The notes below the pieces were generated by a model that searched no databases, was not told where the DNA came from, and was given only the letters and a program-made list of their open reading frames with translations. From Catajapyx aquilonaris (Eukaryota): a stretch of 40,722 nucleotides of DNA. The position numbers and the translations under genes were made by a program. How positions within the stretch are numbered: position 1 is the first letter of the stretch; the number at the start of each line of letters is the position of its first letter. Below, piece after piece: positions 3,249-38,604 of this stretch. The stretch is taken from positions 1 through 40,722 of the forward strand of contig JYFJ02003504.1 in NCBI GenBank assembly GCA_000934665.2, written 5' to 3'.

Positions 3249-6200
3249 CTACGGCAAAAACGGGTAGATGGGGGACATTATAATGCCTTCGGACCTCTTC
3301 CGAGGAGCCAACAACTCTGAAAGTAATACGAGGATGGATAAACCCACTCCGAAAGACCACACGAGGAGAACAGGGGACATCTTGTAAAAGGTCAGGACAC
3401 GGTCATCAGAAGTTAAGCTGCCATCTTCGGAGGCCAAGAGTCGTGCTTGCAGGATGCGACGGAGGAACTTGCGGTGATTGGCGTACTCTTCTCTCTGGGA
3501 ATATATGCCGGATTCCATCATGTGAAGCGATGCTCTTATAATTCGTGGAGCGTCTATTTCATCCCGTGGCAAGGCTAGTCCTGTGTAGGTGGGAAAATAA
3601 TACTCTGGAATCAAATGCACCATCGGATTCCCGTTGTGGTCCACGAAGTTCACCGACTCTCGGCGATAATGGTAGTCTGTCACGACACAAGCAAAATCCT
3701 CGAGAATTACTCTCTCGAAACACTCCTCCCAACGGGACACTGTTTCACTCCTGTCGTACATTTCCTGCGCATATTTCAACCCACTCATCTTGATTCCTTT
3801 CCCGATGAGAATCCTCAGTGCCAGCAATATACCAATGGGAAATTTTGAGGCGTGCAATTCCCTGACTGTGTTGGGAAGGACCTCAGTCTCTGGGAAAGTG
3901 AGCAGAGCGACGATTCTGGACTTGTACAGACATCCAATCACCAATGAAAACAGCAACACGTACGAATAAAAGGCTCGAATAGATGGGTAAGGTGCGAGTG
4001 AAATTGCTTGCTCGATTATTTCGCGCATGATTACTCTCAACATGTTTAGGAGAGACGAAGCTCGTTCATTACCTGTCATAATAGCTGTTCGTATCCTTCC
4101 TTCGACATTTTCAAGCATGTACAATATTATGGACGAGAAAATGACTGTCAGAAACACACCCAACCAAGCTGTTGGGGTGTAAGGCTGGACAATTAGGTAC
4201 CACTTTATGTCTGGAAGAGCATGCCTTCTTATGAAAGAAAATCTAAGGAAAATTATAGGAAACGGTGCAGTGACTGCTCGGATTGACTGGGCAGTAAAAT
4301 ATAATACCATTGTTGAATCAGCCTGCCCATAGAAAACAGAGCCAGCGAAACCGCTGTAAGTACCATTGGGGTAAAAATTATCCAGGGTTAGGTCTGGGAC
4401 GTACACGCGTATTGTTACATTCCGACGTTTTTCTATGTCCAGCAGTGCATACTCTTCCAGAGAGAGGATGTACTTGTCGGGATCTTTGGCCCTCTCTCGA
4501 GCTCTGTTCATGTCAACTTCTTCATGATAAACGGCTCGGTAAATTTTCCCCCACCTATTCGGACTAGCAGGTATCGGAAAGAGATGGTCTCGTCCCAACA
4601 GTTTGTAGAGTGACTGTGGTATGGTTGGGTTGAGCTTGTCCTCTGGCTGGAAACAAAAGTAGCAGACGTTGTGCAGGATTAGTTTCCTCTTCCCTGGAGA
4701 GTATTGCGAGAGGAGCTTGAGGAAGATTCCTCTGGCCGGGTGTGCGAGGAGGATTCTCTCTGGGTCCAGCAGCCCATCGGAGGTGTGGATGAGGGTCGGG
4801 TCGAACTGGTTCCTGAACCTGAAGGTCGTGACTGCGTGCAAGACTAGGTCTGGGAAGTGTCGTGGGTGGGTGGAGAGGAGAAGGTTGAAGGAGCATTTCC
4901 CCCCGTTCCACGTCCGGGAGAAGAGGTCAGGGGGCATGGTCCTGAAGGAGTAGAGCTGCTCCTCCTTCCAGATGACCGGGTGGTCCTCGACGGACACCCT
5001 GAAGGTCTGTCTGTCCATCCGACCAGTGACCACCGGCCGGTACCTGCCCCCCTGGTGACGGGATATCAGACCCTGCATCGCCATCAGGCCAACCCTGTCC
5101 GAGTCGGTGTCCATGTTTAAGAAGCAGTCCGGGTAGTGGGTGTCCAGCAAGTGAAGGACCAGCTCCGTTAACAGGACGTCCTCATCTGGGTCCGGTGTCA
5201 GGGACACGTTCGAGCAGAGAGAATTCATCTGGAAAATGCGGAATTGATAGTGAGATGGTGTTCTGCAGAGATGTCATTATTTTGGTTTTTTTTAGTGTTT
5301 TTATCGAATTACGCCAGGCAGTCATCGTGTGACACGAAATTCGTCACTATTGACACTCAGAAAACGTGGACGTATCTCCACCCAGCGCAGCGGCCGGGGT
5401 TGTAAGTTCTTGAATGCTGAAATGGAGGTTGGCTACAGCAGGCAATGAGGAAACGACGCTCGGAAAACGTCTAATGCGAATTTTTGCGTGGTCGGGTGCC
5501 ACCAGTCATATACAGCCGAGGTGTGCCTGGAACTATGCTCTATACACGTTTCCAGGAGAGCCCTGGGAAAAGGAGTAGCGCTCCTAGTGGATTCAGGCAG
5601 TGAAAATAATCAAGTTTCTAAGTTTGCTTCATGAGAAATGTTGATGAGCACTCCCAAATCACTCCAGGGGCGGGCTACCCCGGGCCGGATCCCCCCATCG
5701 CCGAGCGAAAGTAACAATCAATTTTCGCCCCCAAACAATGAATTGGTCTCATCGCTCGGCGATGACATCGCTGCAATATCGCTAATCAAATCGCTCACAC
5801 GTAAACGCGGATTTAATCCTCGATCGAGTCGGACGTGACCTTCAAGTCGAGGTCATTCTGCTCTATTGCACACCTTCCTGTCACCCCCGTGAGCTTAGTT
5901 GTTCCTAGCCGCCGAAGTGTGGTTTCCGATTTGGCGCTGGTGTCGCTCCACGGTTTCTAAGGCGGTTCCTGGCGGCCGGCTTTGCGAACGTGCTTCGGAC
6001 CCAGCTGCAGGCCTTCAGTGGTTGGCAGTGGTCCTTTTTCATTACAGCTGGGTCAGGAGCAAATTTGCATTGTCGTCCGCCAGGAACCGCCTTAGAAACT
6101 GTGGAGCGACACCAGCTCCAATAACCACACCTCGGCGGCTGGGAGCAACTAAGCTCACGCAAAAGGGGAAGGAGTGTCCTGACCTGAGTATTTTAAGACC

Positions 6201-7643: not shown

Positions 7644-10261
7644 ATGCTGCTCACCTGGCTACTCCTCTTCATCTGGGGGCAGATGCTCCTTGCAGATCAG
7701 GTCAGATTTCATACCAATCCAAGGTCAATTGCTATCACCTATTTATTCATGCTAATTACAAAATTAATGGGCAGTTAACCAGTTCTAGGGCATGGCATGT
7801 ATCTGTAGAGATCTGGAAAGTGTATTACGTCGCTCCCTTGCAAGATGTTCCACAGTACGGCGCAACATGCTTCAGATATTATCATTAGCATATGACTGGT
7901 CTTGTCGTCTCTTAAGGGATTTTATGGCTCAAGTTGTTGACAGCCTGGAGTAGTCTAAACAATGTGTCACACTAAAACCTCGATATAACACTCTCGCTTT
8001 TAACGCCCCATTTTTCCTGATCCTCACAGCAAGTGCGGCACTAAGCATCAGTTGCATATTTTAATAGTTTTTCGGAGGACCCACATATAGATTAATGTCA
8101 TGCATCAGGCCACTTTGAAATCTAATAAGGTAAGGTGTACATTGTCCGTTACTTTTTTCTCACTTGTTAATTTATTACTGAGGGAGTAGCATGCCTTCTA
8201 ACTGCAACTAAACTAAATCCGACCGCCCTTGCCCCGCTTTACCATTGATATATTGAGAAGAATTTTATCGTATCAATTCCGCCTATTCCAGATGAATTCT
8301 CTCCGTCCGAACGTGTCCCTGACACCTGACCCAGATGAGGACGTCCTGTTAACGGACCTGGTCCTTCACTTGCTGGACACACACTACCCGGACTGCTTCT
8401 TAAACATGGACACCGACTCGGACAGGGTTGGCCTGATGGCGGTGCAGGGTCTGATGTCCCGTGACCAGGGGGGCAGGTACCGGCCGGTGGTCACTGGTCG
8501 GATGGACAGCCAGGTCTTCAGGGTGTCCATCGAGGACCACCCGGTCATCTGGAAGGAGGAGCAGCTCTACTCCTTCAGGACCATGCCCCCTGACCTCTTC
8601 TCCCGGACGTGGAACGGGGGGAAATGCTCCTTCAACCTTCTCCACTCCACCCACCCACGACACTTCCCAGACCTAGTCTTGCACGCAGTCACGACCTTCA
8701 GGTTCAGGAACCAGTTCGACCCGACCCTCATCCACACCTCCGATGGGCTGCTGGACCCAGAGAGAATCCTCCTCGCACACCCGGCCAGAGGAATCTTCCT
8801 CAAGCTCCTCTCGCAATACTCTCCAGGGAAGAGGGAACTCGTCCTGCACAACGTCTGCTACTTTTGTTTCCAGCCAGAGGACAAGCTCAACCCAACCATA
8901 CCACAGTCACTCTACAAACTGTTGGGACGAGACCACCTCTTTCCGATACCTGCTAGTCCGAATAGGTGGGGGAAAATTTACCGAGCCGTTTATCATGAAG
9001 AAGTTGACATGAACAGAGCTCGAGAGAGGGCCAAAGATCCCGACAAGTACATCCTCTCTCTGGAAGAGTGTGCACTGCTGGACATAGAAAAACGTCGGAA
9101 TGTAACAATACGCGTGGTCGTCCCAGACCTTACCCTGGATGATTTTTACCCCAATGGTACCTACAGCGGTTTCGCTGGCCATGTTTTCTACGGGAAGTGT
9201 GATGCAGCAGTGGTATTTTATTATACTACTGAATCAATCCGAGCAGTCACTGCACCGTTTCCTCTTATTTACTTTCAATTTACTTTCATAAGAAAGCATG
9301 CTCAGCCAGACATAAAGTGGTACCTCATTGTCCAACCTTACACCCCAACGGCTTGGTTGGGTGTGTTTCTGACAATCATCTTCTCATCCATAATATTGTA
9401 CATGATTGAAAAAGGCGAAGGAAGAATGCGAACAGCTATTATGACAGGTAATGAACGAGCTTCGTCTCTCCTAAACATGTTAGGAGTAATCATGCGTGAA
9501 ATAATTGAGCAAGCAATTTCACTTGCACCTTACCCATCTATTCGAGCGTTTTATTCGTACGTGTTGTTGTTTTCATTGGTGATTGGATGTCTGTACAAGT
9601 CCAGAATCGTCTCTCTGCTCACTTTCCCAGAGACTGAGGTCCTTCCCAACACAATCAGGGAATTGCACGCCTCGAAATTTATCATGGGTATATTGCTAGC
9701 AATGAGGATTGTCATCGGGAAAGGAATCAAGATGAGTGGGTTGAAATATTTGCAGGAAATATACGACCGAAGTAAATCCGTGTCCAGCTGGGGCGAGTGT
9801 TTCGAGAGAGCAATTCGCGAAGATTTTGGCTGTCTCGTGACAGACTACCATTATCGCCGCGAATCGGTGAACTTTGTGGACCACAACGGGAACCCGATGG
9901 TGCATTTGATGCCAGAATATTATTTTCCCACGTACACAGGACCAGCCCGTCCACGGGATGCAATAGACGTACCAAGAATTACAAGAGCATCGCTTCACAT
10001 GCTGGAATATATTCGCAGAGAGAAAAGCACGGCAATCACCGCAAATTTTTGCGTCATATCCTGCGAGCCCGACACTTGGCCTCCGAAGATGGCAGCTTAA
10101 CTTCCGATGACCGTGTCCTGACCTTTTACAAGGTGTCCCCTGTTCTCCTCGTGTGGTCTTTCGGACTAGGTTTATCCAGCCTCGTTTTCCTTTCGGAGTT
10201 GTTGGTTCCTCGGAAGACGTCGAAAAACATTAATGTCCCCATCTACCCGTATTTGCCTTAG
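7644..10261 (+). pseudogene. Divergent ionotropic receptor IR-b, frameshifted (exons 7644-7700, 8292-10261)
   Basis: Exon 1 is accATG, MLLTWLLLFIWGQMLLADQ|GTCAGA, and the acceptor ctattccag precedes 8292. It is a close paralog of IR-a. Alignment shows a 7-bp deletion (ATCCGGC) at ~10006/10007. The shifted frame stops at 10100, and the missing terminal TM lies in another frame ending at TAG 10261. Confidence 0.85.
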
Positions 10262-12156: not shown

Positions 12157-14894
12157 ATGTCGTTCTCCTGCATAGCCTTCATCTGTGCTGCGCTAATGAG
12201 CCTGTCCACTAATGAGGTAAGCATATTCGTGAAGTTCACGTGAGGCATATCAGTTGTGTCTCGGTATGATGTATTATCATGTAATTTGAAATTGTCCTGA
12301 ACGTATTCGAAAAAATGTTTTACTAGATAAAACCACATGATTTCTAGATTGTAACACGTAGAGAGGAATTGTAATCTTGATTTTGCTACAATCAGAGAAA
12401 AAATATATTGTATACAAGAGTATGTAGCGACATTACAAGTGAGGACTAGTTTGTGCAACGGGGTGTAAACATTACAAGCCTCGTGTTCAAATCCATATGT
12501 GCAGGGTATTTCATAATTTAACCACAATAATGCGCGGAAATTTATTGCACCAACTTTTCTGTTTCTATAGGATTTTACAGCAATTTTTTTCCAAGTCTAT
12601 TTTCCCGCTTTTAAAAATATTAATTTAATTACGTGGAGTAATATTTTCATCTGTAATGACCATGCGCTAACTTTCAAGTTTTCCTTTGCAAGGTTAAGCT
12701 GCACGAAGTATTTACGTAACATTTGCTATATCAATTGCAATTAGAGCGGTTCGATAGTTTGTTGGGGCCAGTGTGGGAGTACGTGAACAGGTGCAAACAT
12801 TAATTATGTATTATCTTGTCAGTACACGACATTACTAGAAACGTTGTCGCAAATAGAGTTGGTCCGTATATCTCAAGCAGCGCAAACAAAGTCAGTCTAG
12901 ATATAATGTGCAATCCGCCTAAATTTCTGCAGGTGAATCCTCTCTCTCCGAACGTGTCCCTGACACCTGACCCAGATGAGGACGTCCTCTTAACGGAGCT
13001 GGTCCTTCACTTGCTGGACACCCACTACCCGGACTGCTTCTTAAACATGGACACCGACTCGGACAGGGTTGGCCTGATGGCGGTGCAGGGTCTGATGTCC
13101 CGTCACCAGGGGGGCAGGTACCGGCCGGTGGTCACTGGTCGGATGGACAGCCAGGCCTTCAGGGTGTCCATCGAGGACCACCCGGTCATCTGGAAGGAGG
13201 AGCAGCTCTACTCCTTCAGGACCATGCCCCCTGACCTCTTCTCCCGGACGTGGAACGGGGGGAAATGCTCCTTCAACCTTCTCCTCTCCACCCACCCACG
13301 ACACTTCCCAGACCTAGTCTTGCACGCAGTCACGACCTTCAGGTTCAGGAACCAGTTCGACCCGACCCTCATCCACACCTCCGATGGGCTGCTGGACCCA
13401 GAGAGAATCCTCCTCGCACACCCGGCCAGAGGAATCTTCCTCAAGCTCCTCTCGCAATACTCTCCAGGGAAGAGGGAACTCGTCCTGCACAACGTCTGCT
13501 ACTTTTGTTTCCAGCCAGAGGACAAGCTCAACCCAACCATACCACAGTCACTCTACAAACTGTTGGGACGAGACCACCTCTTTCCGATACCTGCTAGCGA
13601 GAATAGATGGGGCATAAAATACCGAGCGGTTCATTACGAGGAAGTTGACATGAATAGTGCTCGAGAGAGGGCAAAAGATCCGGACAATGTCCTGTCAGCT
13701 GTAGAGTCTGGAATGTTGGAAGTAGAAAGACGCATTAATGTTACATTTGAAGTTTATGTCCCAACTTTCTCTCTGGATGACTTCTACTCAAATGGAAGTT
13801 ACACGGGAATTACGGGAGCTATTGCTTACGGAAAGGCAGACATTGCGATGATTAACTTTTACACATTTGTGTCCATTAAAGCTACAGTCCTTCCGTCTCC
13901 CGTATTTTACCTTCACGTGTCTTTTTTTAGAAGGCATCCAAGGCCGGACATAAAGTGGTACCTTATAGCACAACCATACACGGCTATGTCATGGCTATCG
14001 GCCTTAACAACCGTCATTATTTCATCCGTTACACTGCACCTATTAGAGAAGTGTGAAAAGAAGCTAGGTAATCCGAGCATGCATCTTGTTTCGTCTTTTG
14101 TAAATAAGTTGCGACTAATAATGCGAGAGCTTATCGAGCAAGCAGATTCAATACCTCCTTACCCATCCCTACGAGCTTTTTATTCATACGTACTAGTTTT
14201 CACTCTAGTCTTCGGATGTTTGTACAAAGCCAAAATATTCGCCCTGCTGACATTCCCTGAAACGGAAATTCTGCCCAACACAACTCTGGAATTGTACCAC
14301 TCTAAGTTTACATGGGGCACAACACTTGCTCTTTACATTCTACTTGGAGCTGGGATAAAGAGAAGCCAGGTGGAATATTTGCAGGAAATGCATAAGATGA
14401 CTCAGCCAGTGAATGACTATCGCGATTGCTTCGAAAAAGCGATTGAAGAGGACTTCGCTTGCATTTTGAGCGATTATCTTTACGAGAGAGAATCAGTCAA
14501 ATTCGTGGACCACAAAGGTGAGACGAAGGTGTATTGGATTCCGAACGATTTGAACTCGATTTTCATTTACACTGCTCCTGCGTTCCCACGAGATGCAATA
14601 AATATTCCTGCTTCTCTGACTGGAATACTTCGCATGACTGAAGCGAATTTATTCAAGCAAAGGGAGGATTCTGTCAACCATCTCCAATTTTTGCGTTATT
14701 ACATGCGAGCCAGAAAGTCGGCGGAATATGACGGAACAGCACTTGAAGATGACCGGGTATTGACTCTGTACAAAGTCAGGCCTATTTTTTACGTGTGGTC
14801 ATTTTGCATTGTCATGTCCATCTTGGTATTTTTGTTCGAGTTTGTTGCTAGAAAGAGAACTACAAATAATGTATATCCAGGATACTTGCCGTAA
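12157..14894 (+). CDS. Divergent ionotropic receptor IR-c, 2 exons: 12157-12216, 12933-14894; ~673 aa
   Basis: Exon 1 is MSFSCIAFICAALMSLSTNE|GTAAGC (hydrophobic signal, phase 0). The acceptor tttctgcag before 12933 sits at the same position as in IR-a/b. The ORF is intact, with S1 (NGSYTGITGAIAYGKADIA), QPYT..W, M1, pore EQ, M2 (SLRAFY...LYKAKIFALLTFP), S2 and a terminal TM. Confidence 0.9.
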
Positions 14895-16332: not shown

Positions 16333-17096
16333 ATGAAGAACCTGCTCTACCTGGCTGTGGCTACGGCCCTATTTGTAGGGACATTTGCACAAACGGTATG
16401 AATTGTTGCAATCAAATAATAATTTTAAAATAGATCCAGCTGATGAGTTGAATTATTGTTGCAGTGTCCATCTAAAGAGACGCTGATGAAGGAGTTTGAA
16501 GTATGCAAGGTGGATGTGGCTGGACCAGAAGCCAAAGATGCCAGCATCATGGAGCTCTGGCAGGAACATGGATCGGTATGTTTCGGATGCAAATATCATG
16601 CAGCATAATACATAATTTTTTTCGATCATTACAGTGCATTGTGAAGTGCATGATGAACAAGTTCGGAATTGTAAGTATGACTCTCTGGTTTGGTGTTGCT
16701 TAATCTAATGTGTATGTGCATTTGTGCGCAGCTTAATCCGGATGGTATGATCAACAAGGAGTATGCGACCACATTGGCCAAGGACTGCAAGGCTGTGCAT
16801 ACCGACCTGGCAGACAAGATCGAGAAGGCAGAGCAGTGCATGGCACAACATGGTACGTCACACACTCATTTTTGCGCATGTTTTGCATACAAATGATTTA
16901 CAAATGAGTTGATTTTTGACCACTTTTTTTTCAATTTGGGGCCATATGTGGTGCGCGTTACAATTGGTGCTATGCAATTGTTGTCTAACTTGGAAATTTT
17001 TCAACAGCCGACGCCATCGATCCGTCCAAGCCCAAGTGCTCCGGATACCATGAGCTCATCTCGTGCGTCATGCAGCATTTCAGGAAAGGGGCGTAA
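16333..17096 (+). CDS. OBP-like secreted protein A, 8 Cys, 139 aa; exons 16333-16395, 16465-16575, 16635-16670, 16732-16852, 17008-17096
   Basis: All introns are GT-AG with phases 0,0,0,1. Translation: MKNLLYLAVATALFVGTFAQT-CPSKETLMKEFEVCKVDVAGPEAKDASIMELWQEHGS-CIVKCMMNKFGI-LNPDGMINKEYATTLAKDCKAVHTDLADKIEKAEQCMAQH-ADAIDPSKPKCSGYHELISCVMQHFRKGA. It has a signal peptide and the OBP hallmarks C-X3-C, LxxDG and C-X8-C. TATA at 16277, AATAAA at 17233. Confidence 0.85.
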
Positions 17097-17808
17097 AGAT
17101 CGTTGCGTCACATCCGTAACATCAGCCTGTGCCTTCTGAATCGGACCCGTAACGGGGGGTGCTGGGATTCCCTTCTTTGTATTTTAGTCACATATTTTTT
17201 GGCAGGAACATTGAACTCGTTTGCACCGGACCAATAAAGACATCGGAAACACAGCATTGTCTACTTTTTTTGTCACAGTTCGTAACGGATGGACATCATT
17301 TCTAAGTGAAAATTTCAAGTACTGCCAAAAATGCTAATTATTGCTTTTATGGTATGTCTTTTGGGTGTGGTAGCTGGTAGGGACAGCCTGTGTCAGACAC
17401 CAAATTGCTTGTATCGCCTGCAACATTTTTCATGACCAACGTTGCAGATTGTGGGGAGACAAAGGAGGAAATGCAGTCCGGCTGGACTATAATAATTGCA
17501 CGTTCACAAGGCACGCACTGCTGCAACAATAGGACGTCTACAATTCCCACGAGCACGATAGCATCTCTTCAGCAAACCAAGAATAATCTCACTTTGCCCC
17601 GCTCTTTGTTTGCCGGATTGTGAATGAAAAGGGGAATTCAAGGTCGACTGTTACGAGGCACCAGAAATTGGAGGCAGATTCGGATCTGGTTGGGGGTCAG
17701 ATCATCAGATGACGTGTGTAATTCGAGGATAAAAAGAAGGGTCGAGGCAACGTTTGGGTTTAGGATCGCAGCAGGTACAGCGGTACGGCACACAAGCACC
17801 ACTCAACA

Positions 17809-18611
17809 ATGAAAAACCTGTTGTACCTCGCCTTGGCTTCGGCCATCTTTGTTGTGGCCATGGCAGACAAGGTGAGTTAACAGTGCAGCTTTCAGGATTT
17901 GGGCGAGGTGACCTTTGACCTTATGGTTTCAGTGCCCAGAAAGAAAAGAACTCAAGACAGAGTTCGAATCCTGCAAGCTTCAGGTGGCTGGCCCTGACGC
18001 AAAGGATATCGACATCATGACTCTGTGGCAGGAGCACGGATCGGTTTGTACATAATAATTATATGCACACAAAATATATGTAACTAATTCAGGAGATACA
18101 CAATAATGATGAGCATTTTTTTAAATAATTTCAGTGCATCGTCAAGTGCATGATGCAACAATTCCATTGGGTAAGTACATGTCACAATATTGTACAATGA
18201 AGACCTGTTTTGACTTGTAAAATATCCATACATATTTGCATATTATACTTGAAACGTAGAATTTACACAACTAGCAGCAAATATACACTTTCGCTCTAGG
18301 TAGGTAGTAGTTGAGGGTTTGTTTCTTAAGAGTAAGCTACTGCATCTAAAATTAGTCGTAAAAACACGAGTTGTTGGAGACTTATTACTTAAGCACTGTA
18401 ATATTACAATGCTTAAGTAATAACTAATAAGTCTCCAACAATTTTCATCACGTTTATGACTAATTGGTTGATTTTTGCTGTTTCTCATCTAACAGCTAAT
18501 TTCAGTCTACACTAATTAGCAATCATGTAGGGAAATTAATTATTAATTAGATTATACACAAATGAATAAATTTCATATGCATAGCCACCTTCTCTATTGA
18601 ACTATATTGCA

Positions 18612-18646
<35 letters not shown>

Positions 18647-19263
18647 ATATATTTAACGAATTACCTAATGCGCAATGACTTACAATTTGCTCCTGACAGA
18701 GCATTTCTAACAATATTGCTGATGATCGACGAATACTTACCTTACTTTACATTTTACTACGATTAACTACTTATTATTCATACAATATTGTAATAAAATC
18801 ATACAGTGAATGGATTTCATACCTTTAAAACACGTAATTTCTGCATAAAAGTTTATTAATATCGAACCAACTGAAAGCTGTTATCATTGATTTGTTAGAC
18901 AAAAGTGCAAATTAGTACTAATCACACATTTTTCTTTATGAATCTAATTAGTTGGACGCAGACGGCAAGATCAAGAAGGAGTGGGCCATCGCCATGGTGC
19001 AAGACTGCAGGAAGGTTCATTCTGACCTGGCGGAAAAGATCGTGAAGGTCGAGCAATGTGTCGTCGATCACGGTCAGTATATAGAGAAAAATTCCACAGA
19101 ATTTTAAAGTCTCAAAGTGTTACTGCAACCTGGCCTGATATTTATTTATATTTCTCATGAAAAAAAAAAAAAAGCTGACAACGTGGACCCGACCAAAGAG
19201 AAGTGCGCCGGATACACCGAAATCATCATCTGCATGATGAGCCAGTTCAGGAAAGGAGCGTAA
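17809..19263 (+). CDS. OBP-like secreted protein B, 8 Cys, 139 aa; exons 17809-17871, 17933-18043, 18135-18170, 18952-19072, 19175-19263
   Basis: Exon sizes and phases match gene A. Translation: MKNLLYLALASAIFVVAMADK-CPERKELKTEFESCKLQVAGPDAKDIDIMTLWQEHGS-CIVKCMMQQFHW-LDADGKIKKEWAIAMVQDCRKVHSDLAEKIVKVEQCVVDH-ADNVDPTKEKCAGYTEIIICMMSQFRKGA. AATAAA at 19464. Confidence 0.85.
18612..18644. repeat. (ATT)n microsatellite in OBP-B intron 3
   Basis: Direct reading. Confidence 0.9.
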
Positions 19264-19677
19264 AAAAAATATTCTTCTCCGAGAGAATACACTCCAATGG
19301 CGTTTTCCAATCGTTTGGAGTACTATGTAAATGACATGGAAAAAACAATGGATGCTTAATTAACAGAGAGCTGGCAACGTGCCATCTCCCCACTCTCCCC
19401 ACCACCGCCTCGTCCTCTTTGTTGTACCAAAACCCTCCCCATTGCATTGTTGTTCTCATAGACAATAAAACATTAAGCTATCTGCACCACCTCTGCATTT
19501 AATTCTAGTTTATTATTATACTGGACCGCACTCTTCTGTTTCATGTCAATCTGACTTGGGGTCATACCACCACCTGGTGACCTTCCCAAATTGACCTCTA
19601 CAATGAAGGTACAGGCTAATAACCTACCGCGTCTGATAAAAATATCGGAATTCGACAGCTCTCGATTGAATTTACAG

Positions 19678-20143
19678 TTAAACCAACAACAGGATCATCA
19701 CCATGTTGCAGTTCATGTAAATTAGCAATTAATGTAGTTGAGGAAAATAAATTACAGTAAGTTTATATTTTTGTGAGTCAAAGCTTTCTCATAATTATGA
19801 TGACATTGATTGGGCTGAATTTATTAGCAAATTATGATGTCAATGAATCAGATTGAATTCTTGTAGCTGTTATAATGGATAGTTACTAAATGAATTTACT
19901 ATTAAACCAATATTAGCAGGATCATCAACATGTAAATTAGCAATTAATATAGACTGATCAAAATAGCACATTTTCGCATGTAATTAAATATTACGGTAAG
20001 TTTATATTTTTGTGAGGAAAATTTCTGGAGGCCTTTTTTTCATAATTATGATGACATTGCTTAGGATTAATATTAGCGAATTATGATGTCACAAGATTAA
20101 CACGAAATTCTTGCAGCTGTTAATTAATTGATGGCTACTAAAA
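19678..20143. repeat. Diverged tandem duplication, two ~220-240-bp units
   Basis: The blocks CAGGATCATCA, CATGTAAATTAGCAATTAAT, GTAAGTTTATATTTTTGTGAG and CATAATTATGATGACATTG occur twice in the same order. Confidence 0.8.
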
Positions 20144-20690
20144 TAAGCATCACGTTATTAGAACAAGTGGTAACTCTCAGCAACTACCGGTAATTATAAT
20201 ATTGAGTAGGCCTCCTAAAAACAATCGTCATAAAAATGGCATCACCCACAGGAAGGAGTAATTATTAATGAAGATGCGTGAAACTAATTGTATAATTAGT
20301 TACGTTTCCAACAACGTCGTGCTAAATTTCAGATTAGTAAATTTTTCCCATGCCCTTTTTTTCTTCCACGGCCATTCGTTTATCCTGCAAACTTGAAACT
20401 GACGTCAGAAGCGAGTAAAACTGTTCTGTTCCGCGTAGTGTTACGTAAGAGGCGGAACATCCTTACCAGAGACAATCGCCCCAAAAAATGTCGGATTTAT
20501 ACGTTTACAAAAACCTCTTTTCATCCCTATATAACCTTCAGCAAAATAGAGCACGGAAAGTACGTCAAGAGCCCGAGGATGCCAATAATAACCGGAAGGG
20601 AGGGTAATGAGAAGAGATGCCAAACCAAATTTGCGTCCAGTTGACATCCCTTGCTTGGCCTTGCTTGTCATTATATACAGTGTCCGTGCA

Positions 20691-20697
20691 TATAAAA
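20691..20697 (+). promoter_or_regulatory. TATA box of OBP-like C
   Basis: TATAAAA starts 84 nt upstream of the ATG, in the same GCATATAAAA context as gene A. Confidence 0.55.
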
Positions 20698-20774
20698 TCA
20701 AGAGGAGTCTACTTTCCGGCTCTTATCTTTTTTTATTTGCCATTTTATCTGAGACCGGACAAGAGAGAAGCAGG

Positions 20775-21700
20775 ATGAATCCTCTTCTGGTGTGCTTCAT
20801 CGCACTTTTTGGCACCCTCGCCTACGTGCAGGTCAGTTATGTAACACCCTGTTGCCACACATCAATTAATCGTCATTAGAAAGTAACGCAAATTGTAACT
20901 CAACGTGGAATCAGCTATATTTATGCTACGGTACAATCTGTCTAAACTGGCTATATTTTAATTACTTTGTGATCTGACAGTCAGTTGAAGTGCACAAATA
21001 ATTGGGTTTACTACAACCTGTGTAGAAAGTAGCCTACTAGTAAGGAGAGTAATTAAAAAAAATTCAATTGAACTGTTTCAGGCGGAATGTCCATCTCTTG
21101 AGTCGATGTTTGCTATTGGAATGGACTGCAAAATGAAGCACAAGGAATTGGGAGTAAGTGAAAAAAAAAATACAGTTTCTTTTAAGTAAAAAGGAAAACT
21201 AATATTTAAAAATCCAATTTTGATTCCAGTGCATTGCGCAGTGCTTCTTGCAAGAAATGGAACTGGTAAGAGCATGAGCCTATAGCTGCCTGTATGTAAT
21301 ACGTTGTGAATTAAAATGCGAATATGTTTATTTATAGACGACGCCTGATGGACAGCTGGACAAGCCAAAGCTGGAGAAATTCGCGAAGGCCTGCGAAAAA
21401 ATTGCTGCAGAGCATGGAGTCGACCTTCCTACGATCAAGACTTGCATCCTTTCAAAACGTAAGTTTCGCAAAGAAAATCGCTCATTATTATTTCAGCAAA
21501 ATTACGAGCTCATTTTGCATACCAAAAAATGTTTCAAGCGACATTTTATTCAATAACCAATGAGAATATTTCATTTTTAATTTAAGTTTGATTACCTCTT
21601 ACAAATTTTTTGTTTTGTTTCAACTCCAGCTGTGGACACGAGTCTGCCAGATTGCGGAGGTTATGCTTTCATGGTCGCCTGCGTCTCTCCGCAGAAATAA
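20775..21700 (+). CDS. Short OBP-like secreted protein C, 8 mature-region Cys, 118 aa; exons 20775-20831, 21082-21153, 21230-21265, 21338-21458, 21630-21700
   Basis: GT-AG introns with phases 0,0,0,1; exon 3 is 36 nt and exon 4 is 121 nt, as in A/B. Translation: MNPLLVCFIALFGTLAYVQ-AECPSLESMFAIGMDCKMKHKELG-CIAQCFLQEMEL-TTPDGQLDKPKLEKFAKACEKIAAEHGVDLPTIKTCILSK-PVDTSLPDCGGYAFMVACVSPQK. TATA at 20691, AATAAA at 21814. Confidence 0.82.
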
Positions 21701-22479
21701 GGTGCTAAAATATTCATCCGTTGTCGTCTAGGTTCACTAATGTCAAAAATAACAATTAAAAATATATATCATCGGGACTCAATCATCATTACAGCTTCAT
21801 TCGAGCGTCAGTTAATAAATTTGCTATTTTGTGCAATCCTACTTATCTTATTTCCTGATTGATTACTGGCAGAGGTGTCCCAAAATGTCTTTTTTTCAGC
21901 TTAGCAATTTTAGACACTAAAGCTGCTTATTTGGAAGCAGCTGCTTCATTTTTCTCATAACAAATTGATGTTCAATCATAATTGTTCCAATGATCAGCCA
22001 TTTGTGATCGGAAATTCTTTTAAATTTAGAGCTCGAATCCATCTGACTAATTCTGGCGGCCAATAACTACTAAAAATAACTATTCAAAAGCAGTCTAAGC
22101 AGTTTAGTGCCAAATATTGGCAGCTTTCAAGGGGCATTGTTTATTTAAAATTCTCGTGTTCTCATTTTGTTGATTACGTTTGGACATGATGTGTAATTTG
22201 TTTCCTTCCGGTCACGCAAAACATGATCGTGACATACAATGACATTACGTGATCGCAAAAAAATTATGTCAACCCATTTCACATATCAAAAGCATCCCCC
22301 CAGCAGAGCAACACAAAACACAGGGGAAAGGTAATCGCAGGAAAAAAACAATCACTGCAAACCTATACTGCATTTGGTTATGACCTTCAGGTGGGTCATG
22401 TTTGGGAAATAAAAAGAGCAAGTACACTGCGTAACAAGTTCATTTCATTGGTATAACCCACAGCAGGGAGTGGGTCGAG

Positions 22480-23090
22480 ATGAACCTCATTTACGTGTGT
22501 CTGGTAGTGATTAGTGTCACCTACGTGCAGGTGAGTTCACTGGTTTAATTATTCGCATAAGTGCACTTTATGTGATTGTTGTCACAATTTTTTCAGGCCG
22601 AATGTCCGTCCATGGAATCACTTATCGCGATCGGAGCCGAATGCAAAGCTGAGCATAAGCACATGGGGGTATGATCTCTGTACAGTATAGTACCGGTATG
22701 TCCTTCACTGACTCAACAGCAATTATTTATTATTGTAATATGTTCATTGCAGTGTGTGGCCAAGTGCTTCCTGGACAAGATCGAAATGGTGAGTCTTCGC
22801 ATTCTTCTCTTACAGCGACTGTAACATACAGTACATTTTCAGACAACGCCTGACGGTCAGCTGGACAAGAGCAAAGTTGACCCGTTTGTGGCCAAGTGCA
22901 AGGAAATGGCTGCCGAACATGACGTCGACCTTCCCAAGCTTGCTGCTTGTGTCTCGCGGAAACGTAAGTTCATGTGGTGCACAATTACCAACCACTAAAT
23001 GCGCTAATTGTGCGTGTATACTGTACAGGTGTGGACACGACCAGACCAAACTGCGCCGGATACCTCTTCATGCTGGCCTGCTTCATGTGA
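22480..23090 (+). CDS. Short OBP-like secreted protein D, 8 mature-region Cys, 113 aa; exons 22480-22530, 22597-22668, 22753-22788, 22843-22963, 23029-23090
   Basis: Paralog of C with the same phases. Translation: MNLIYVCLVVISVTYVQ-AECPSMESLIAIGAECKAEHKHMG-CVAKCFLDKIEM-TTPDGQLDKSKVDPFVAKCKEMAAEHDVDLPKLAACVSRK-RVDTTRPNCAGYLFMLACFM. AATAAA at 23100. Confidence 0.82.
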
Positions 23091-29009: not shown

Positions 29010-29882
29010 CTACAGGAAGAAGGGGAGGAAAAGAGAAAAAGCGCCAGGTTAGATCAAAGGATGGCCAAAATACTTAGCTTTTTTATGTTTTGTTTGTTTT
29101 TTTGTAATGTTTTTTTAAATACATAAATGGCAAACCGAATTCAGCTCAGGCAGGAAATAATTTCTGGCGGAGAAAAAAAAATTAAACGCGAAATTATACT
29201 TTCGTGTTTTCCTTCCTAACTTTTTTTTTTTCTCCTGGCGCCAGCACACACACGAGTTTTTTCTTTTCTTTCAAAAACCAAAATTTAAAGGGCAGCATCT
29301 CGCCTTTTTTTTGGAACATAAATTACAAGGAAATGTATTCAAAAATGTATCAAAGTCAAGAGTTCTACTTGTCGATGAACAATTTGTCGTTACACTCGCT
29401 CCAAGAAGTGCATGCATGGTGGTGTTTTTCACTTACTAAAATTACGTTCCTTCATCATCATCTTTTAAATATGATAACGTTTAAACAAACGTGTCCACCT
29501 AAGCAAACAATACAAAAGAATAAAGCAGAAATCAAAAAAGTGGCCACCAATATGAAACGCAACAGGAACTGAAATAAAAATGAACAAGTACGTGGTGCAA
29601 CCGGACACAAGTGATCACTCATTTCCATCAAACTAAAATAAAAAGGAGTGGAACAAAAAAATTATACACATATCAAATACTGAACCAAGAAAACGTGGCG
29701 TCAGGGGGAATGGTGAACGAAACCAAGTAAATATATTTTTGTGAGGGAAGGGGGGAGGGTTCGCAAATGTTGTCGTCCAGCAGAAACAAACCACAGGCCC
29801 AAAAAACCCAAAAATCAAAAACAGGCAGAACCAAAAGAGGTGAGTATACACAGGAGACGAGTCGTAGCTACTGGGCCTCTAC

Positions 29883-32800
29883 CTGCTGAAGTACTACAAG
29901 TTAGTCCCGGCTCGGGATGTCGGTGATGGGTGGTTGTGGTGGAGGTTGTGGACAGAGAGGTGCCAACAGGGTCTCCGGAAGATGAAGAAGAAGAAGAAGG
30001 GTGGTAATGGTGGTGGTAATGGTGGGCTGTGGGACGGTCCTTGGGTTCATCAGTCTCCGAGTCTCGAGTCAGTGTGTCAGTCTTGGGTGCAACTCGTACC
30101 ACCTTCTTTCTTCGAACAACTCTCTTCACAGTCCCGCCTTCGTGGATTGTCTCTTCCTCTTCTTCCTCTTCCTCCTCTTCCGTCTCCTGCTTTTGAGCCA
30201 TTCGTCTAAGGTACGCCTCGAGTTGAGCCTCAGGGTCAGACCCTGCGTCCGTCTCGACCACAAACCTCTTCTGGACCACGCGGGTCACATGAACATTCCC
30301 ATGCTCATCCGTCTCTTCCTGCTCCTGGATGAGTTCTCCAGGTCTGAACCTTTCGATGTAGTCCTCCACTTGTTTCTGGGCGTCCGGACCTGTGAAGGTC
30401 AGTCTCTGAATCTCAGGAGGCATTGCCACTGTGCGGTGTATCTCCTGGGCATACTCCGGGTCGTCGTCGCGAGAGTCTCTCCTGTAATATGTTCCTTCAG
30501 CACCGCGAAGAAGACCTTCGACCACTTTGTCAGGGTCAAGGTGCATCATGTGACCTTCGGATCCGGCGGCGGCTGCGGCGGCTGCAGCTGCTTGATCCAG
30601 AGCATCAGTGCTGGATACCATAGTGTTGGAACCTCCACTGGTGAAACTGGAGGACATGACAGAGTCGGTCTCACACTGGTAGGTAGCGTGTGTGGCCGTG
30701 GAGGAACTAGGCTCTAATGAATCGGTGCTTCCGGTCATTAGGAGGTCACGAGGCAACCCCATGGCCTTATCACCACTGTCGTCCTTCCCACTAGAGCTGA
30801 GGTCTCCTTCGCGCCCACTGGAGCTGCTTTGATCCTGAGCAGCAGCCATGTCTTTGGGAGAATCCGAATCAGCGTCTGGCTCTGAAGGTGGCGGTCTGGA
30901 GGCGCCTTCGACCTCTTCGACCGCCTCGCCACGTCTGTCCTCCTCGATCGAGTCCACACTACGGGTCAGGCCTCCAGAGTAGGCGTCTCCGGACCTGCAT
31001 GGACCGGCGGTGGTTGAGGCACTAGCGCCCAGCTCCAGGGAATCGGTGGAGGTGGTCATCACTCTGGAGGGAAGGTCGAGCGAGTCTGTGGACGTGGTCA
31101 TCATCTTCGTGTGCATCTCAATCGAGTCGGCCGAGGTGGTCATGGCTGACCTCTTGGCCGCTCCTTCCATCTCTATTGAATCTAACGAGGCTGTCATCGG
31201 ATCATCCTTGGTCTTTCCTGGGTCCAAAGAGTCTATGCTTTTGCCCATCGTGTCTTCCTCTCTGGTTCCGGCCTGGTATTCGATTGAGTCTGCCGAGGTG
31301 GTCATCACGTCTCCGGATTTTGTTTTCATCTCCAGCGAGTCTGTACTGGATTGCATCTGAGGGGCAGGAGGTTTGTCGCCCGATGATTCTACAAACGAAT
31401 CGTCGTCGTATGACCTGCCTTTCAGTGACTCGATGTCAAAGTGGGTGATGGTCGAACTTTGACCCGAGCCGCCGCTCATGGTTCGCGACGCAGGCAAGTG
31501 CGGTATGGTACGGAAGCCCTCAGGAGGAAGAATCTGATGAGGCAAGCTCGAGTCCAGATCCAGATCAGGCAAGTGCTCCTCTTCTAGGGAATCAGCATCA
31601 CCATCATCCCTCCCAATGGACTCGGTCTTATCCACGAGACTGCTGGCTGTGTCCCCTCCTAAGCTTTCCATCACTTCTCCAAGTGGAAGACCCAGAGGTC
31701 CGCTGCTGGTCGTCATGCTGCCGTCCCTGTCAAAATTCTCCACATTGGTCTGCGCCTGCCTGATTATCTCGTCAATCTCGAACATTCTCTTCTCGTAATC
31801 GTCTCCTTCTGATTCGTTATCAGTGTCAGTCGCTTGACCCGCTTCGGACAGAGTCTCTCTTCCCTCAGACTCGGACAGCTGGCTCTCATGTCCCTCCTCG
31901 ATTTCGGACAAGATGGCCTCTTCCTCCTGCGCTTTCTGCTCTATGGTCTCAGCCTCTATGCAGGCGCTTTCCAGTCGCTCGAACTCGTTCAGCGACGACA
32001 AGGACACATCGTCGCCCTGCCCACTACGACTTGGACGACGCCCGTTTAGCGAGTCCTGAGAACCAGAGCTTTGCCTTCGAACCGTGTCCATATCGAACTC
32101 CTGCTCAAGTTTCTCAAACTCCTGGAGGGAGCCCATGGATATGTCATCATGTTCACCGCTCCTTGTGAAAAACTTGCGTCCGGCCAAGACATCATACTCT
32201 GGAGTGCTGCTCAGAGACTCGGCTTTGCAGCGATCCAGATCTCTCCTTTCCAGGTCATCAGACTCGTCTTCCTGAGTCTCCTCAATGTCTTCTAGAGGCT
32301 GCCTGTAAACCTGGTCTGGCTCCGCGTCATAGCCCATGTCATACCCAGGGTCACCCACAGGCCTGTCAAATTGCATCTCCATCCATCGCTTGCTGTCTTG
32401 CACTTCGTACTCGTAATCCTCTGGATAACCGGACCGTTCAAATGACATTTCGTATGCATAAGCCGCATCGTCCCTTTCGGTTGGGACAGCATCGTCGTGC
32501 TCTAACATCTCTGTTTCTTCCTCTGAAGGAAAGAACTTGACGTCTGTCGGCTGTGCGGAGAGTGGAGCAGGAGAAAGAGGCTCGTCCGATTCCGTCAGTG
32601 GACGGCCGTCTTTGACCGACGTGTCTGTATCTTCCTCCAGGACAACCACGTACTCATCCGCCGCCATGTCAGTCAACTCCGATTTCTCGATCATCTCAAA
32701 CGATTCAGTTGACAATGACTTGAGCTGCATCTGACCTTCGCCAGATCCGTCTGAACCTCCTGGAAGATGCTGCTCCTCGGTCAGCATTGTCATTCCCATC

Positions 32801-35800
32801 CGTTCCAACACTTCTGCCTGCAGCTCAATTTCAGGTTCTTCCATAATAGCGTCGCCCATGTCCTCTTCCTCCAGAACATACTCTCGGCCCTGGTCAGTTT
32901 CAGTCTCCGACGACTTTTCTGACGCGTGGCTCGATCCGGAAGCTGGAGTCTGAGGAGTCGACTTACTGCTGGCACATTCCGGAAAGTCCTCCTCTCTATC
33001 CAGATCTGGGTACCTGAAGTCCTTGTGCACTGTCGGGCTGTGTTGGGTGATGGTAATGTCAGGAACATTCACATCAGTCAAGGGGGCCAGAGTGAGCCAG
33101 GTTTTCTCGTGAGGATACTTTCCTCTAGTTTCCAGCTCATGTTTCTCCTCAGGTTCTTCCTTGAGGGGGTCCAATGGCCGCTTCTCGTGACTTATTTCAA
33201 TCCGTTCGTCGTGATACACAGCGGCCTCAGACTCGGCCAGTTCATGCGACTGCCACTCGCGACTGTCACCGTGGGTCGCATATTCGGCTGCCCTACTACA
33301 GGCCCCTGAGTACTCAGACTCCAGCTCACTCACGCTCGCCTGCGCTTCTGATGAGAATTCGGGAGTGTCGTCCTTTATCTCATAGTCTTCGACAGGTTCT
33401 GGAGTGCTGGGACGCTCCAGAGGCTCTTCCTGATGCACCTCACTGGTCATCTCCATAATCTCTGTGATCTCAAGCTCAGGGTGGTCGTCGGAAAAGGCAA
33501 CGTCAGCCGACACTGGTCTTAGGTCGGTGTCGGACACGATGGAAGCAGGTCGACTGTCCTCTCTCTGCTCTGACTCTGGCTGTTCCATATCTGCCGCTGC
33601 TTCCTTCTCCTTCTTTCGTCCTCTAAGCAGCGCCTGGTCCGCTTCCGTTTCATACGACTCCTCCTCAGCTTCGTCCACATCTTTCATCTCCATGTCCAGA
33701 CCTTCCTTGGTTGTCAGGCTTTGCTCGGGCTCCTTGTATTTGTCGCTTTCTGGAGCGTCTTCAGCGGACGTGACGACTGACTCTTCGGGTCTTGGTCTGC
33801 TCATGGTGGTGGTGGTGACTGGGCCTTCATGCCTGGCAACGGACTCGGTCATCACCAGCTCGCGAACAAAGGAGTAAGTTCCGTCGCTGACACTCTCGTT
33901 CCGCCTGTGTCGACGTCGCTCGACGCGTTCGCCAGCTGGTGCCGTCCTTTCCCCTGTCGGAGCGTCGGTTTCTCCGCCTTGTGCAGGACCGCTGGCGTCG
34001 GCAGGACGGTCCATGTCGTCGTACTCGGGAACATAGTCCACCTCCGTCGGTCCGTTGCTGTGAGCGTACACTTCTTGATTGTCGTCGTCGTCGTCGTCGT
34101 CGTCCTCCCCTCCTTCCGTGGTGTCGGCGTATGATTCGGAAGTGACCTGGGTGCAGACGCTGGGGCCGCCGTCGCCCTCACCGCTGGGGATAGAGGACGT
34201 GGTAATGGTGACTGATTGCATGGCCAGGTTGGGTGGGGAGGGTGGGTAAGTAGTTGTGCTGACCTCGCTGGTGGTTGTGGTGCTGGTGGTGGCGGCTGAC
34301 GTCGTCGACGCCTCTGAGGTGGGAAGGAGGGCTGTGGAAGCGGTGGGCGACGCTGGGAGGGACGGCTCCTGGCGACCCTCAGCAGTGCTCAGCTGCTCCG
34401 ATGTGGCCGAGCTGGTCATGGCGCTCAGCTGCTCCACCAGCTCAGAGTCGGTCAGCGACGCCTGGTGGCTGGCCGCCTGTATCACCGTCCGAAGCGTCGA
34501 TTCGGACAGGCTGGACAAACTGCTGTGGCCTCCGTCGTCAACGCTTGAACTCAGCGTCACAGACATGTCGTCAATTGACTCCCCCATCACCGGAGCTTCG
34601 GGCTGGGACATTGGCGATTCCGAATGCGGACTCTCGGTGTGGATGGGTTTCGGCTCAGGATGGAAGGTCATCTCGATTGACCTCTTCATTTTGGGTGCAG
34701 GCGACTCCTCAAATGTTGCAGGGTGGAAGTCGCCGGAGGTTTTGTGGGCCGAGGTGTCTGCAGTCGGCTCGGTCGTCATTCGCGGTTGGAAGCCTTCGGA
34801 TATCATTTCGAAAGAGGTGGGCATATCCTCCTCCCTGGGCGTCAGAGCCCGTATGACGTGAGGAGGTATTTCCCTCTCGTACGGCTCCACGAACCTGTCT
34901 TCCGCCGCCTCGTCGTCGTCCATGACAGGAGTCTCAACCTCCCTCTCCATGTCTCTCTCCAGCTCAAGAGCGGACGGAACGAGGGTCTCTGAGGTTTCGC
35001 TGGAAGCTTCTACACTAGCTAGATGCCCGGAACTCTCAGAGCTCTCGATCGACTTCATGGACTCCCTTGAGCTGAGGGAGCTGACAGCAGTGTGGTACTC
35101 CTGAGACGTGGTGGTGGTGGCGACGGAGTGGTCTTGAGACGTGAGAGCCGACTCGTAGTCGGAAGAGCCAGCTGTCCCTGAACCGGCGATTAAGGCTTCG
35201 ACGTCTGATGAACATGGTCTGCTCATGGTGCGACCGCTCTCTGAGGTCTGCTCGAACGAGTGGTACCGACTTTCGCTGGAGCTGGACCAACCTTCGAAGT
35301 CGGCTCCAGAGCGTCGGTCCGCCTTAAGAGCGATGCCTCTCTCGTCTCTAGATCCCGAACTAGTGGAAGACTCAGCGTCAGATTTTCTGTCCGCTTTTGG
35401 GGATTTGTGGCTGCGAATCACAACGACCGTGTCTTTAGCCTCCAACCTCTCCTCTGCAGTGGAGTACTCTGTCGAAGATCTCTTGTGCTCTTCGTCAGAA
35501 GAGGTCCGTGTCAACCTGTCGTCTTTCTTCTCAACGACTTCGGTGGAAAATCTGTCAGTCTTTTCTTCTGACTTTTCCACTTTCTGGCTGACTGAATGAA
35601 CCTTCTCTCGGGTCTCTGAACCATTGTCGCGGAAGGTTGTTGTTTTTCTCGAGCTCTCCTCCGATTTTTTGGATTCGGAAGCAGTAGCTTCCTTGTGCTC
35701 TTCCTCCTTCGCATGTGACTCTACGGTCCCTTCTGGACTTTCTTCAACAGAGGCCTCCTGCACCCTAACAGAAATCTTCTCCCTGTGATCACGCTTTTCT

Positions 35801-37946: not shown

Positions 37947-38604
37947 CTAGAATAGGATGACAACAGACGAGCCGTTAGTATCTACCTAGCCACTACAAAT
38001 AGCAAAAAAGCTAAAGTGCAGCAGAACAAGAAACTGGTTTTTTGTTGGTGGTGTTTTAGTTTTAAAGGGGGGCTAGGCGACAGACAAAAATAATTAGAGA
38101 TGAGTTCGCAAGAAGAATCGAAACTCATGAGCGAAGTTAACAGCACTGTCTTTACTTGTTAAAGTACAAGCTGTTAGAGAGAAAAAGAAACGAGGGGGCG
38201 TCGTCACCTTTTTACGTCCTACTGTGAAAGCTGACATTCAAAGGATATCATGAATGTTAGTGAATCCCTTGTGCAGCTGTGAGGAAAGCTCGTCAATCAT
38301 TAGTGCACATGTCTACAGACTATGTTAGGGCATGGTTCCACACGTGTCTTGAAACCTGTATGCATCGGACCGCCACAGTCCCGTTCGAACGGTCGCAAAC
38401 AAACTCTACTTGCAAAAGTGTACAGAAGCGAGGATTCATAACATAAGCACGGCTACAAGCGGTTCCCCCCTCTCCCCGAATGAAACCCGAAAAATTATTA
38501 AACATCAAAATTTACAAAATTTTATTGAAGCAGCTAACTCTCGCCAGTAACGGATAAATTGACAAGAGAGAGAGACAGAACAAGGCCAGCAGGGAGTTAA
38601 GTAC

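Follow-up and report, generated by a model that had tools for sequence, protein, structure and literature searches.

Odorant-binding proteins (OBPs) are recognized by six core cysteines, C1 to C6 (PMC8067015). In mite OBPs, an N-terminal cysteine is bonded to the last cysteine, as established by mass spectrometry and a crystal structure (PMC8222343, PMC8269058). Among locust Plus-C proteins, type-B members (LmigOBP6, SgreOBP9, OasiOBP8) have one cysteine ahead of C1 and one behind C6 (PMC5623057, PMC6062766), and type-A members (LmigOBP3/4/7/11 and orthologues) carry a cysteine exactly 25 residues past C3 in 11 of 12 sequences inspected by eye (PMC5623057). How the six-cysteine OBPs of insects relate to the OBP-like proteins of mites and centipedes is an open question; according to PMC8269058, databases had yielded no common precursor. 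We analyzed a window that comprises an entire 40.7-kb contig (JYFJ02003504.1) of Catajapyx aquilonaris, from an assembly of 285.6 Mb in 20,583 contigs, and describe four tandem genes on it, A to D, each encoding an eight-cysteine protein. Our best explanation, to which we assign a probability of roughly 0.7, is that these are OBP-fold proteins with four disulfide bonds, that the fourth bond arose through a switch of cysteine partner, and that the proteins act as ligand carriers.

Four intact five-exon genes were rebuilt from the sequence between positions 16333 and 23090 of the forward strand. The genes, their two extra cysteines (Ca and Cb), and the flanking elements are as follows.
16333-17096, forward strand: gene A, 139 aa; exons 16333-16395, 16465-16575, 16635-16670, 16732-16852, 17008-17096
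17809-19263, forward strand: gene B, 139 aa; exons 17809-17871, 17933-18043, 18135-18170, 18952-19072, 19175-19263
20775-21700, forward strand: gene C, 118 aa; exons 20775-20831, 21082-21153, 21230-21265, 21338-21458, 21630-21700
22480-23090, forward strand: gene D, 113 aa; exons 22480-22530, 22597-22668, 22753-22788, 22843-22963, 23029-23090
16465-16467 (A), equivalents at 17933 (B), 21088 (C), and 22603 (D), forward strand: Ca, the extra cysteine at the mature N-terminus, followed by proline; read from the sequence
16786-16788 (A, residue 19 of exon 4), equivalents at 19006 (B), 21392 (C), and 22897 (D), forward strand: Cb, the extra cysteine 25 residues past C3
16277-16283 (A), others at 17729 (B), 20691 (C), and 22409 (D), forward strand: TATA-like element, pattern match only
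17233-17238 (A), others at 19464 (B), 21814 (C), and 23100 (D), forward strand: AATAAA, pattern match only

All 16 introns are GT-AG and 54-781 nt long. The intron phases (0,0,0,1) and the sizes of exon 3 (36 nt) and exon 4 (121 nt) are identical in the four genes (4/4), in agreement with the five-exon genes proposed by the first-pass annotation of the window; the models, with junctions read from the sequence, are confirmed as real and as correctly described there. Mature-part identity is 60% between A and B and 55% between C and D. Over exons 2-5, dN/dS is 0.30/1.40 (A vs B) and 0.33/2.18 (C vs D); synonymous change is far above non-synonymous change and, by this measure, the genes are under purifying selection. 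In all four genes a TATA-like element stands 56-84 nt ahead of the ATG and an AATAAA 10-201 nt past the stop, both as pattern matches only. The first exon is basic-hydrophobic and 17-21 aa long in 4/4 genes (from the sequence, with a hydropathy score for A-C) and would serve as the signal peptide of a secreted protein.

Each mature protein contains eight cysteines, at spacings of 12,23,3,25,16,14,8 in A and B and 12,8,3,25,16,12,8 in C and D. The first series is an exact match, in both A and B, to the C-X12-C-X23-C-X3-C-X25-C-X16-C-X14-C-X8-C pattern given in the first-pass annotation, and the two extra cysteines noted there as conserved are present in all four genes (4/4). That six cysteines fit classic OBP spacing holds for A and B, where the C1-C2 gap of 23 lies within the quoted range of ~20-35, and fails for C and D, where the gap of 8 falls below it; C and D are probably too short for helix 2. 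The six core cysteines, with C2-x3-C3 and C5-x8-C6, occur in 4/4 window genes and in 11/11 family genes modelled in this genome. With classic OBPs and pheromone-binding proteins (PBPs) of PF01395, such as LmadPBP (1OW4) and HarmPBP1 (7VW8), genes A-D share a signal-peptide exon ending in a phase-0 intron, the x3 and x8 spacings, 42 residues between C3 and C4, a length of 113-139 aa, and an arrangement in tandem arrays. They differ from them by the two extra conserved cysteines and, in C and D, by the C1-C2 gap of 8. The classic six-cysteine rule does not describe this family, with eight cysteines in 11/11 modelled genes.

Profile comparisons very probably place A-D in the OBP superfamily, by transitive homology through paralogues that match PF01395. 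A six-frame search of the genome with PF01395 yielded one match only, on contig C485, which encodes C2 to C6 in one exon; three domains of this kind on C485 all score above the PF01395 cut-off (3/3; 27.3, 24.0, and 22.2 bits). A profile of the 11 modelled genes aligns to these three domains with an HHalign probability of 94.3% (E 1e-7, 74 columns, one gap), with C2, C3, C4, C5, and C6 in register. The family hidden Markov model scores the same domains at 18.2, 24.8, and 20.7 bits, values reached by 0/300 cysteine-preserving shuffles of each. One C485 domain (C2-C6 core) was modelled with a predicted local distance difference test score (pLDDT) of 86.5, and in a structural search 12 of its top 15 matches were titled OBP, PBP, or GOBP (best Z 8.3, root-mean-square deviation 2.2, 76 residues); the remaining three (THP12, Sol i 2, and a sand-fly salivary protein) presumably share the OBP fold as well. 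The model of gene A exon 4 has two helices, residues 9-22 and 24-39, with Cb at residue 19 and C4 at residue 36. These correspond to helices 4 and 5 with boundaries that agree with the C485 model, so that Cb sits in the last turn of predicted helix 4; in alignment, it falls two residues past a tyrosine of the C485 paralogue.

Several results weigh against this placement. PF01395 matches none of the single exons of A-D (0/11 exon pieces), and its six-frame search recovered only C485 and no window gene. Foldseek returned no match to the C485 paralogue model at E <= 0.001, Z values of 5-8 are middling for a helical protein, and the folds modelled cover the paralogue C2-C6 core and exon 4 only, both of which fit an OBP. 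Two paralogue exons scanned singly likewise gave no PF01395 match (0/2). An unrelated cysteine-rich helical family that reached the x3 and x8 spacings by convergence would suit the lack of direct Pfam, PDB-sequence, or atlas matches to the exon pieces. Such convergence is nonetheless highly improbable, as similarity to the PF01395-positive paralogues is carried by non-cysteine residues (the 0/300 result was obtained with cysteines kept) and the helix boundaries of the exon-4 model agree with those of the paralogue model. The OBP assignment of the first-pass annotation is therefore retained at the superfamily level, through the profile link to the C485 domains, and does not extend to PF01395 matches of single exons.

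A 10-sequence exon-4 alignment found no relative among the longer proteins of the protein collections, and the C485 frame as query gave no candidate in the protein collection search. The C485 alignment against the PDB produced one weak match, OBP69a (E 0.2), and an ESM Atlas search with exon 4 returned short hypothetical proteins only, with recognition below threshold. Ten matches in a representative library (the four examined are repeat proteins resembling EF-hands) and PDB sequence matches to calcium-binding proteins over ~16 residues were rejected as chance likenesses of a D-x-D-G loop.

Genes A-D are part of a larger family. Searched against the genome, exon 4 of gene A matched six further places on contig C3177 and a single one on C11342, and local searches added a seventh C3177 gene. 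In each of the 11 fully modelled genes the mature protein has exactly eight cysteines, and exon sizes and phases agree across the set; one intron is GC-AG, and mature identities are 17-60%. A signature combining the 36-nt Cys-x3-Cys exon with its splice sites matched the genome 58 times, compared with 6 for the reversed pattern; the exact codon-plus-splice variant is found in 5 of the 11 modelled genes, and by rough extrapolation the genome may hold ~110 such genes in total. Modelling around the signature matches gave 68 raw models, reduced to 60 by merging anchors with the same downstream exons and to 58 distinct cores by removing 2 near-identical copies. Five of the 58 are among the 11 full models, giving 64 distinct five- or six-exon gene cores, a partial sample of the genome. 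Profile scores of these cores are partly circular, likeness to the family having been the basis of their selection. The lineage of A-D, defined by Cb, comprises at least 28 of the modelled genes. The "family of four" of the first-pass annotation thus stands as a tandem cluster and not as a measure of family size.

On contig C3177 (L013-L015), seven Cb-type genes lie in tandem on the minus strand at 11.6-24.7 kb; one has a long Gly/Arg/Pro-rich C1-C2 linker and tail, and one has a GC-AG intron. On contig C524, at least 11 Cb-type genes are densely packed on both strands at 28-62 kb (L096-L099); they are very divergent, and in several the C1-C2 gap is very short or there are additional cysteines. 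The 2.6-kb contig C11342 (L016) carries a near-identical copy of a gene from C3177 that probably represents an uncollapsed haplotype, and copies of this kind mean that gene counts may be inflated.

The 58 cores fall into two types, 24 with Cb and 34 without; Cb was masked while the core models were selected. Cb-type genes end a median of 8 residues past C6. An in-frame GT lies exactly 21 nt past C6 in 25/34 genes without Cb vs 0/24 with it, and 24 nt past C6 in 4 more of the 34 vs 1/24. A short-intron sixth exon that supplies a cysteine at C6+9 was found for 20/34 genes without Cb (14 as Cys-Pro) vs 0/24 with Cb, the background rate of this test being 318/4000. By eye, an N-terminal cysteine is present in 22/24 Cb genes, mostly 9-13 residues ahead of C1, and in 23/29 six-exon genes, mostly 15-16 residues ahead (in 6 of the 23, in the second-ranked model only); the remaining genes had no usable upstream model. 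None of the 11 fully modelled genes has a cysteine past C6 among its eight.

Across the modelled cores, Cb and the C6+9 cysteine are mutually exclusive in these predicted chains, and the N-terminal cysteine is kept in both types. This exclusivity supports a Ca-Cb fourth disulfide that arose by partner switch, and the even count of eight cysteines in 11/11 genes favours four internal bonds. We consider a Ca-Cb bond in A-D likely. A disulfide from the N-terminus to the middle helix had been suggested in the first-pass annotation; the exclusivity of the two cysteines speaks for it, and the bond itself is one that we infer. In moth PBP structures, one end of the pocket is where helix 1 begins, helix 4 turns into helix 5, and helix 6 ends. 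A Fisher P of 3e-10 for the exclusivity was discarded as a measure because paralogues are not independent and the value overstates support.

The cysteines could instead be wired as Ca-C6 and Cb-C4, in a mite-like closure of N- to C-terminus, or form inter-chain bonds in dimers. Mite OBPs do join their N-terminal cysteine to the last one, and locust type-A proteins have nine cysteines with Cb apparently unpaired (and, by eye, 1/12 without Cb). However, the mite partner is a cysteine past classic C6, which Cb-type genes are missing. In the exon-4 model, helix 9-22 holds Cb in its final turn and C4 lies 12 residues along helix 24-39, which would be too far apart if the model holds, and inter-chain bonding sits poorly with the even count of eight. 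We therefore regard these other wirings as improbable.

Other observations count against a simple Ca-Cb partner switch. On an unrooted tree of 60 cores and 72 columns (7 poorly modelled cores left out, 5 replaced by full models), the Cb/C6+9 pattern takes 3 changes (bootstrap 3-4), of which well-supported branches force 1, and a single origin is not rejected (approximately unbiased test, p-AU 0.113). By these tree estimates, the change of type is one to four evolutionary events. Additionally, 14/34 genes without Cb showed no C6+9 cysteine by the sixth-exon test, one Cb gene (L097 6550) has a cysteine four residues past C6, and locust type-A OBPs have the Cb position without an N-terminal cysteine, so Cb can exist without Ca. 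A switch in the direction from Ca/C6+9 to Ca/Cb is moderately favoured; as the tree is unrooted, the direction is drawn from the wide spread of the Ca and C6+9 pair in locusts, a mayfly, and chelicerates.

An array of two-domain OBP genes occupies 66-84 kb of contig C485 (L017, L018) and contig C9691. In the gene examined, each domain has an N-terminal cysteine and a cysteine at C6+9, making it a tandem dimer of the six-exon eight-cysteine type. One copy carries a frameshift and one an internal stop.

Comparison with known OBP kinds sets these genes apart by combination, not by any single cysteine. Dipteran Plus-C proteins (such as AgamOBP47/48) similarly have more than six cysteines on an OBP core, and their extra Cys-Pro lies past C6. 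The difference from this signature drawn in the first-pass annotation is upheld: no cysteine follows C6 in 11/11 modelled genes, and there is no counterpart here of the C-terminal Plus-C part. The dipteran proteins also add up to six cysteines and a proline, on longer chains (PMC3839933, PMC3595023, PMC8067015). Locust type-B proteins share with A-D the count of eight and a Cys-Pro ahead of C1 (by 14 residues there, 12 here), but their eighth cysteine is at C6+9, whereas here it is at C3+26 with none past C6 in 11/11; in this genome, the counterpart of type-B is the six-exon sister type and not A-D. Locust type-A proteins share the extra cysteine 25 residues past C3 (C3', between C3 and C4), but lack a cysteine ahead of C1 and have two further ones around C5 (C4' and C5', nine in total) that are absent in 11/11 modelled genes. 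The chelicerate and centipede OBP-like proteins (VdesOBP1, 7NYJ; TurtOBPs; Strigamia) share the N-terminal cysteine, often as Cys-Pro. VdesOBP1 is without helix 2, as C and D probably are, and Strigamia has large lineage-specific arrays. The chelicerate and myriapod proteins lack classic C2 and C5 in the account of PMC5381604, while both are present in 11/11 genes here, and the chelicerate N-terminal cysteine is bonded past classic C6 (PMC8222343, PMC8269058), to a partner absent here.

By eye, Ca and Cb without a cysteine past C6 were found together in 0/52 locust OBPs, in 0/10 mayfly OBPs (PMC13205551), and in 0/33 among the sequences listed of 51 chelicerate and centipede OBP-like proteins. 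The protein collections searched yielded no close sequence relative of A-D. No title or abstract describing the Ca-Cb pair was found, in a survey that extended neither to bristletail and firebrat OBPs nor to the 109 Blattella sequences or cysteine-skeleton figures. An eight-cysteine subfamily previously reported from early-branching insects or cockroaches might nevertheless include A-D. Each extra position has its precedent in locusts, and the bristletail and firebrat OBPs (Missbach et al. 2015) and 109 Blattella OBPs fall outside the comparison; set against the zero counts and the searches of collections and literature, we judge this rather unlikely. The distinct subfamily of the first-pass annotation stands insofar as the Ca/Cb combination was not seen elsewhere, and is weakened insofar as each position has a locust precedent (type-B for Ca, type-A for Cb). 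Only the combination of Ca and Cb without a post-C6 cysteine appears new; each position alone is known in locusts.

We propose that A-D are secreted OBP-superfamily proteins of 10-14 kDa, with exon 1 supplying the signal peptide. Judging by spacing and homology, the mature chain would keep the classic disulfides C1-C3, C2-C5, and C4-C6, and the fourth bond would join Ca to Cb at the end of helix 4, tethering the beginning of helix 1 to the turn between helices 4 and 5. Under this model Ca would always have a partner, the C6+9 cysteine in the six-exon type and Cb in the five-exon type, and would have moved by about one helical turn between them. The older eight-cysteine form, in which the sixth exon encodes the C6+9 cysteine, would be the source of the switch and is seemingly still abundant in this genome; the A-D lineage would have lost that exon, leaving chains that are predicted to end a few residues past C6. 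A and B would have room for all six helices, and C and D, without helix 2, would have a more open pocket. The four proteins would most likely carry or buffer small hydrophobic ligands in extracellular fluid, with the sensillar lymph that serves ionotropic and gustatory receptor neurons as the most probable site.

Three divergent single-frame genes resembling ionotropic receptors (IRs) lie directly upstream of the cluster.
3249-5273, reverse strand: IR-like gene
8217-10261, forward strand: IR-like gene with a frame break
12804-14894, forward strand: IR-like gene
Their matches to PF00060 (E 4.5e-4 to 2.9e-3) are below the curated cut-off. The first of them has a 94% identical copy on contig C3177, which starts within that copy; the window and C3177 may thus be parts of a single locus in which IR genes separate two OBP arrays.

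A chemosensory role for A-D is suggested at slightly better than even odds. With the same fold and bonds, the proteins could instead be non-sensory carriers, whose cargo in cuticle, haemolymph, or gland secretions would be lipids, pheromones, or defensive compounds, a substantial possibility that we place somewhat short of even. Many OBPs are expressed outside sensilla. Of 87 ligands, none was bound well by the ubiquitous Plus-C protein PameOBP3 (PMC5232348), and some of the Blattella Plus-C expansion may not be chemosensory (PMC6175461). Fast tandem turnover and IR-like neighbours on two contigs fit chemosensory clusters instead, if weakly; physical linkage to IR genes says little about function.

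These data describe a variant within the known OBP family and not a new kind of system. One genome holds the insect core with a mite-type terminal cysteine pair beside a form in which that pair is apparently re-wired, and with the forms side by side, a few recombinant proteins would be enough to test how disulfides are gained, lost, and exchanged between partners. The ~110 genes extrapolated point to a large hidden repertoire, near the 109 OBPs of Blattella. The latter was the largest set known in 2018 (PMC6175461), and a 2014 survey counted 8 OBP sequences in all basal hexapods (PMC4145409). More speculatively, and with distinctly less than even confidence, an early-branching hexapod poor in odorant receptors (ORs) may have built a ~100-gene OBP repertoire, missed by gene callers, on an ancestral eight-cysteine scaffold that unites the insect core with the mite-type N-to-C bond. 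The A-D lineage would then have lost the last exon and rewired its N-terminal cysteine to helix 4, a topology not yet described, with helix 2 then lost repeatedly to give open-pocket miniatures. On this view, reduction would have produced the classic six-cysteine OBP, and one half of the history would survive in locust type-A and the other in type-B.

An exon-by-exon search for ORs, of a kind that misses divergent receptors, gave 15 candidates; PF02949 matched a single one, and that one has a better score with PF08395, as a gustatory receptor. This result fits an early-branching, OR-poor lineage without being proof of one. If the genome truly has few or no ORs, the view that OBP expansion is independent of ORs would be strengthened. 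OBP-like genes are reported as absent from crustaceans (PMC5952958), which together with the mitochondrial-type gene order described below makes a hexapod source likely.

The IR-like genes of the window are 96-100% identical over ~600-760 nt of their 5' halves, and the third is only 52-72% identical to the others downstream. Such a mosaic points to gene conversion or an exchange of segments in the recent past. In the middle gene, frames 8217-10100 and 9776-10261 overlap near the 3' end, as in a young pseudogene or an assembly error. On the reverse strand, 29815-37974 is a single 2,719-codon open frame, acidic and rich in Ser/Thr/Glu, with no Pfam match; we take it to resemble the giant exon of neuronal ankyrins. 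Elsewhere in the assembly, contigs C5905 and C8523 (L039-L043) contain mitochondrial-type sequence, and cox1 on C5905 is broken by several frameshifts, which suggests a nuclear copy. The gene order on the mitochondrial-type contig is cox1-trnL(taa)-cox2-trnK-trnD, an order that marks crustaceans and hexapods.

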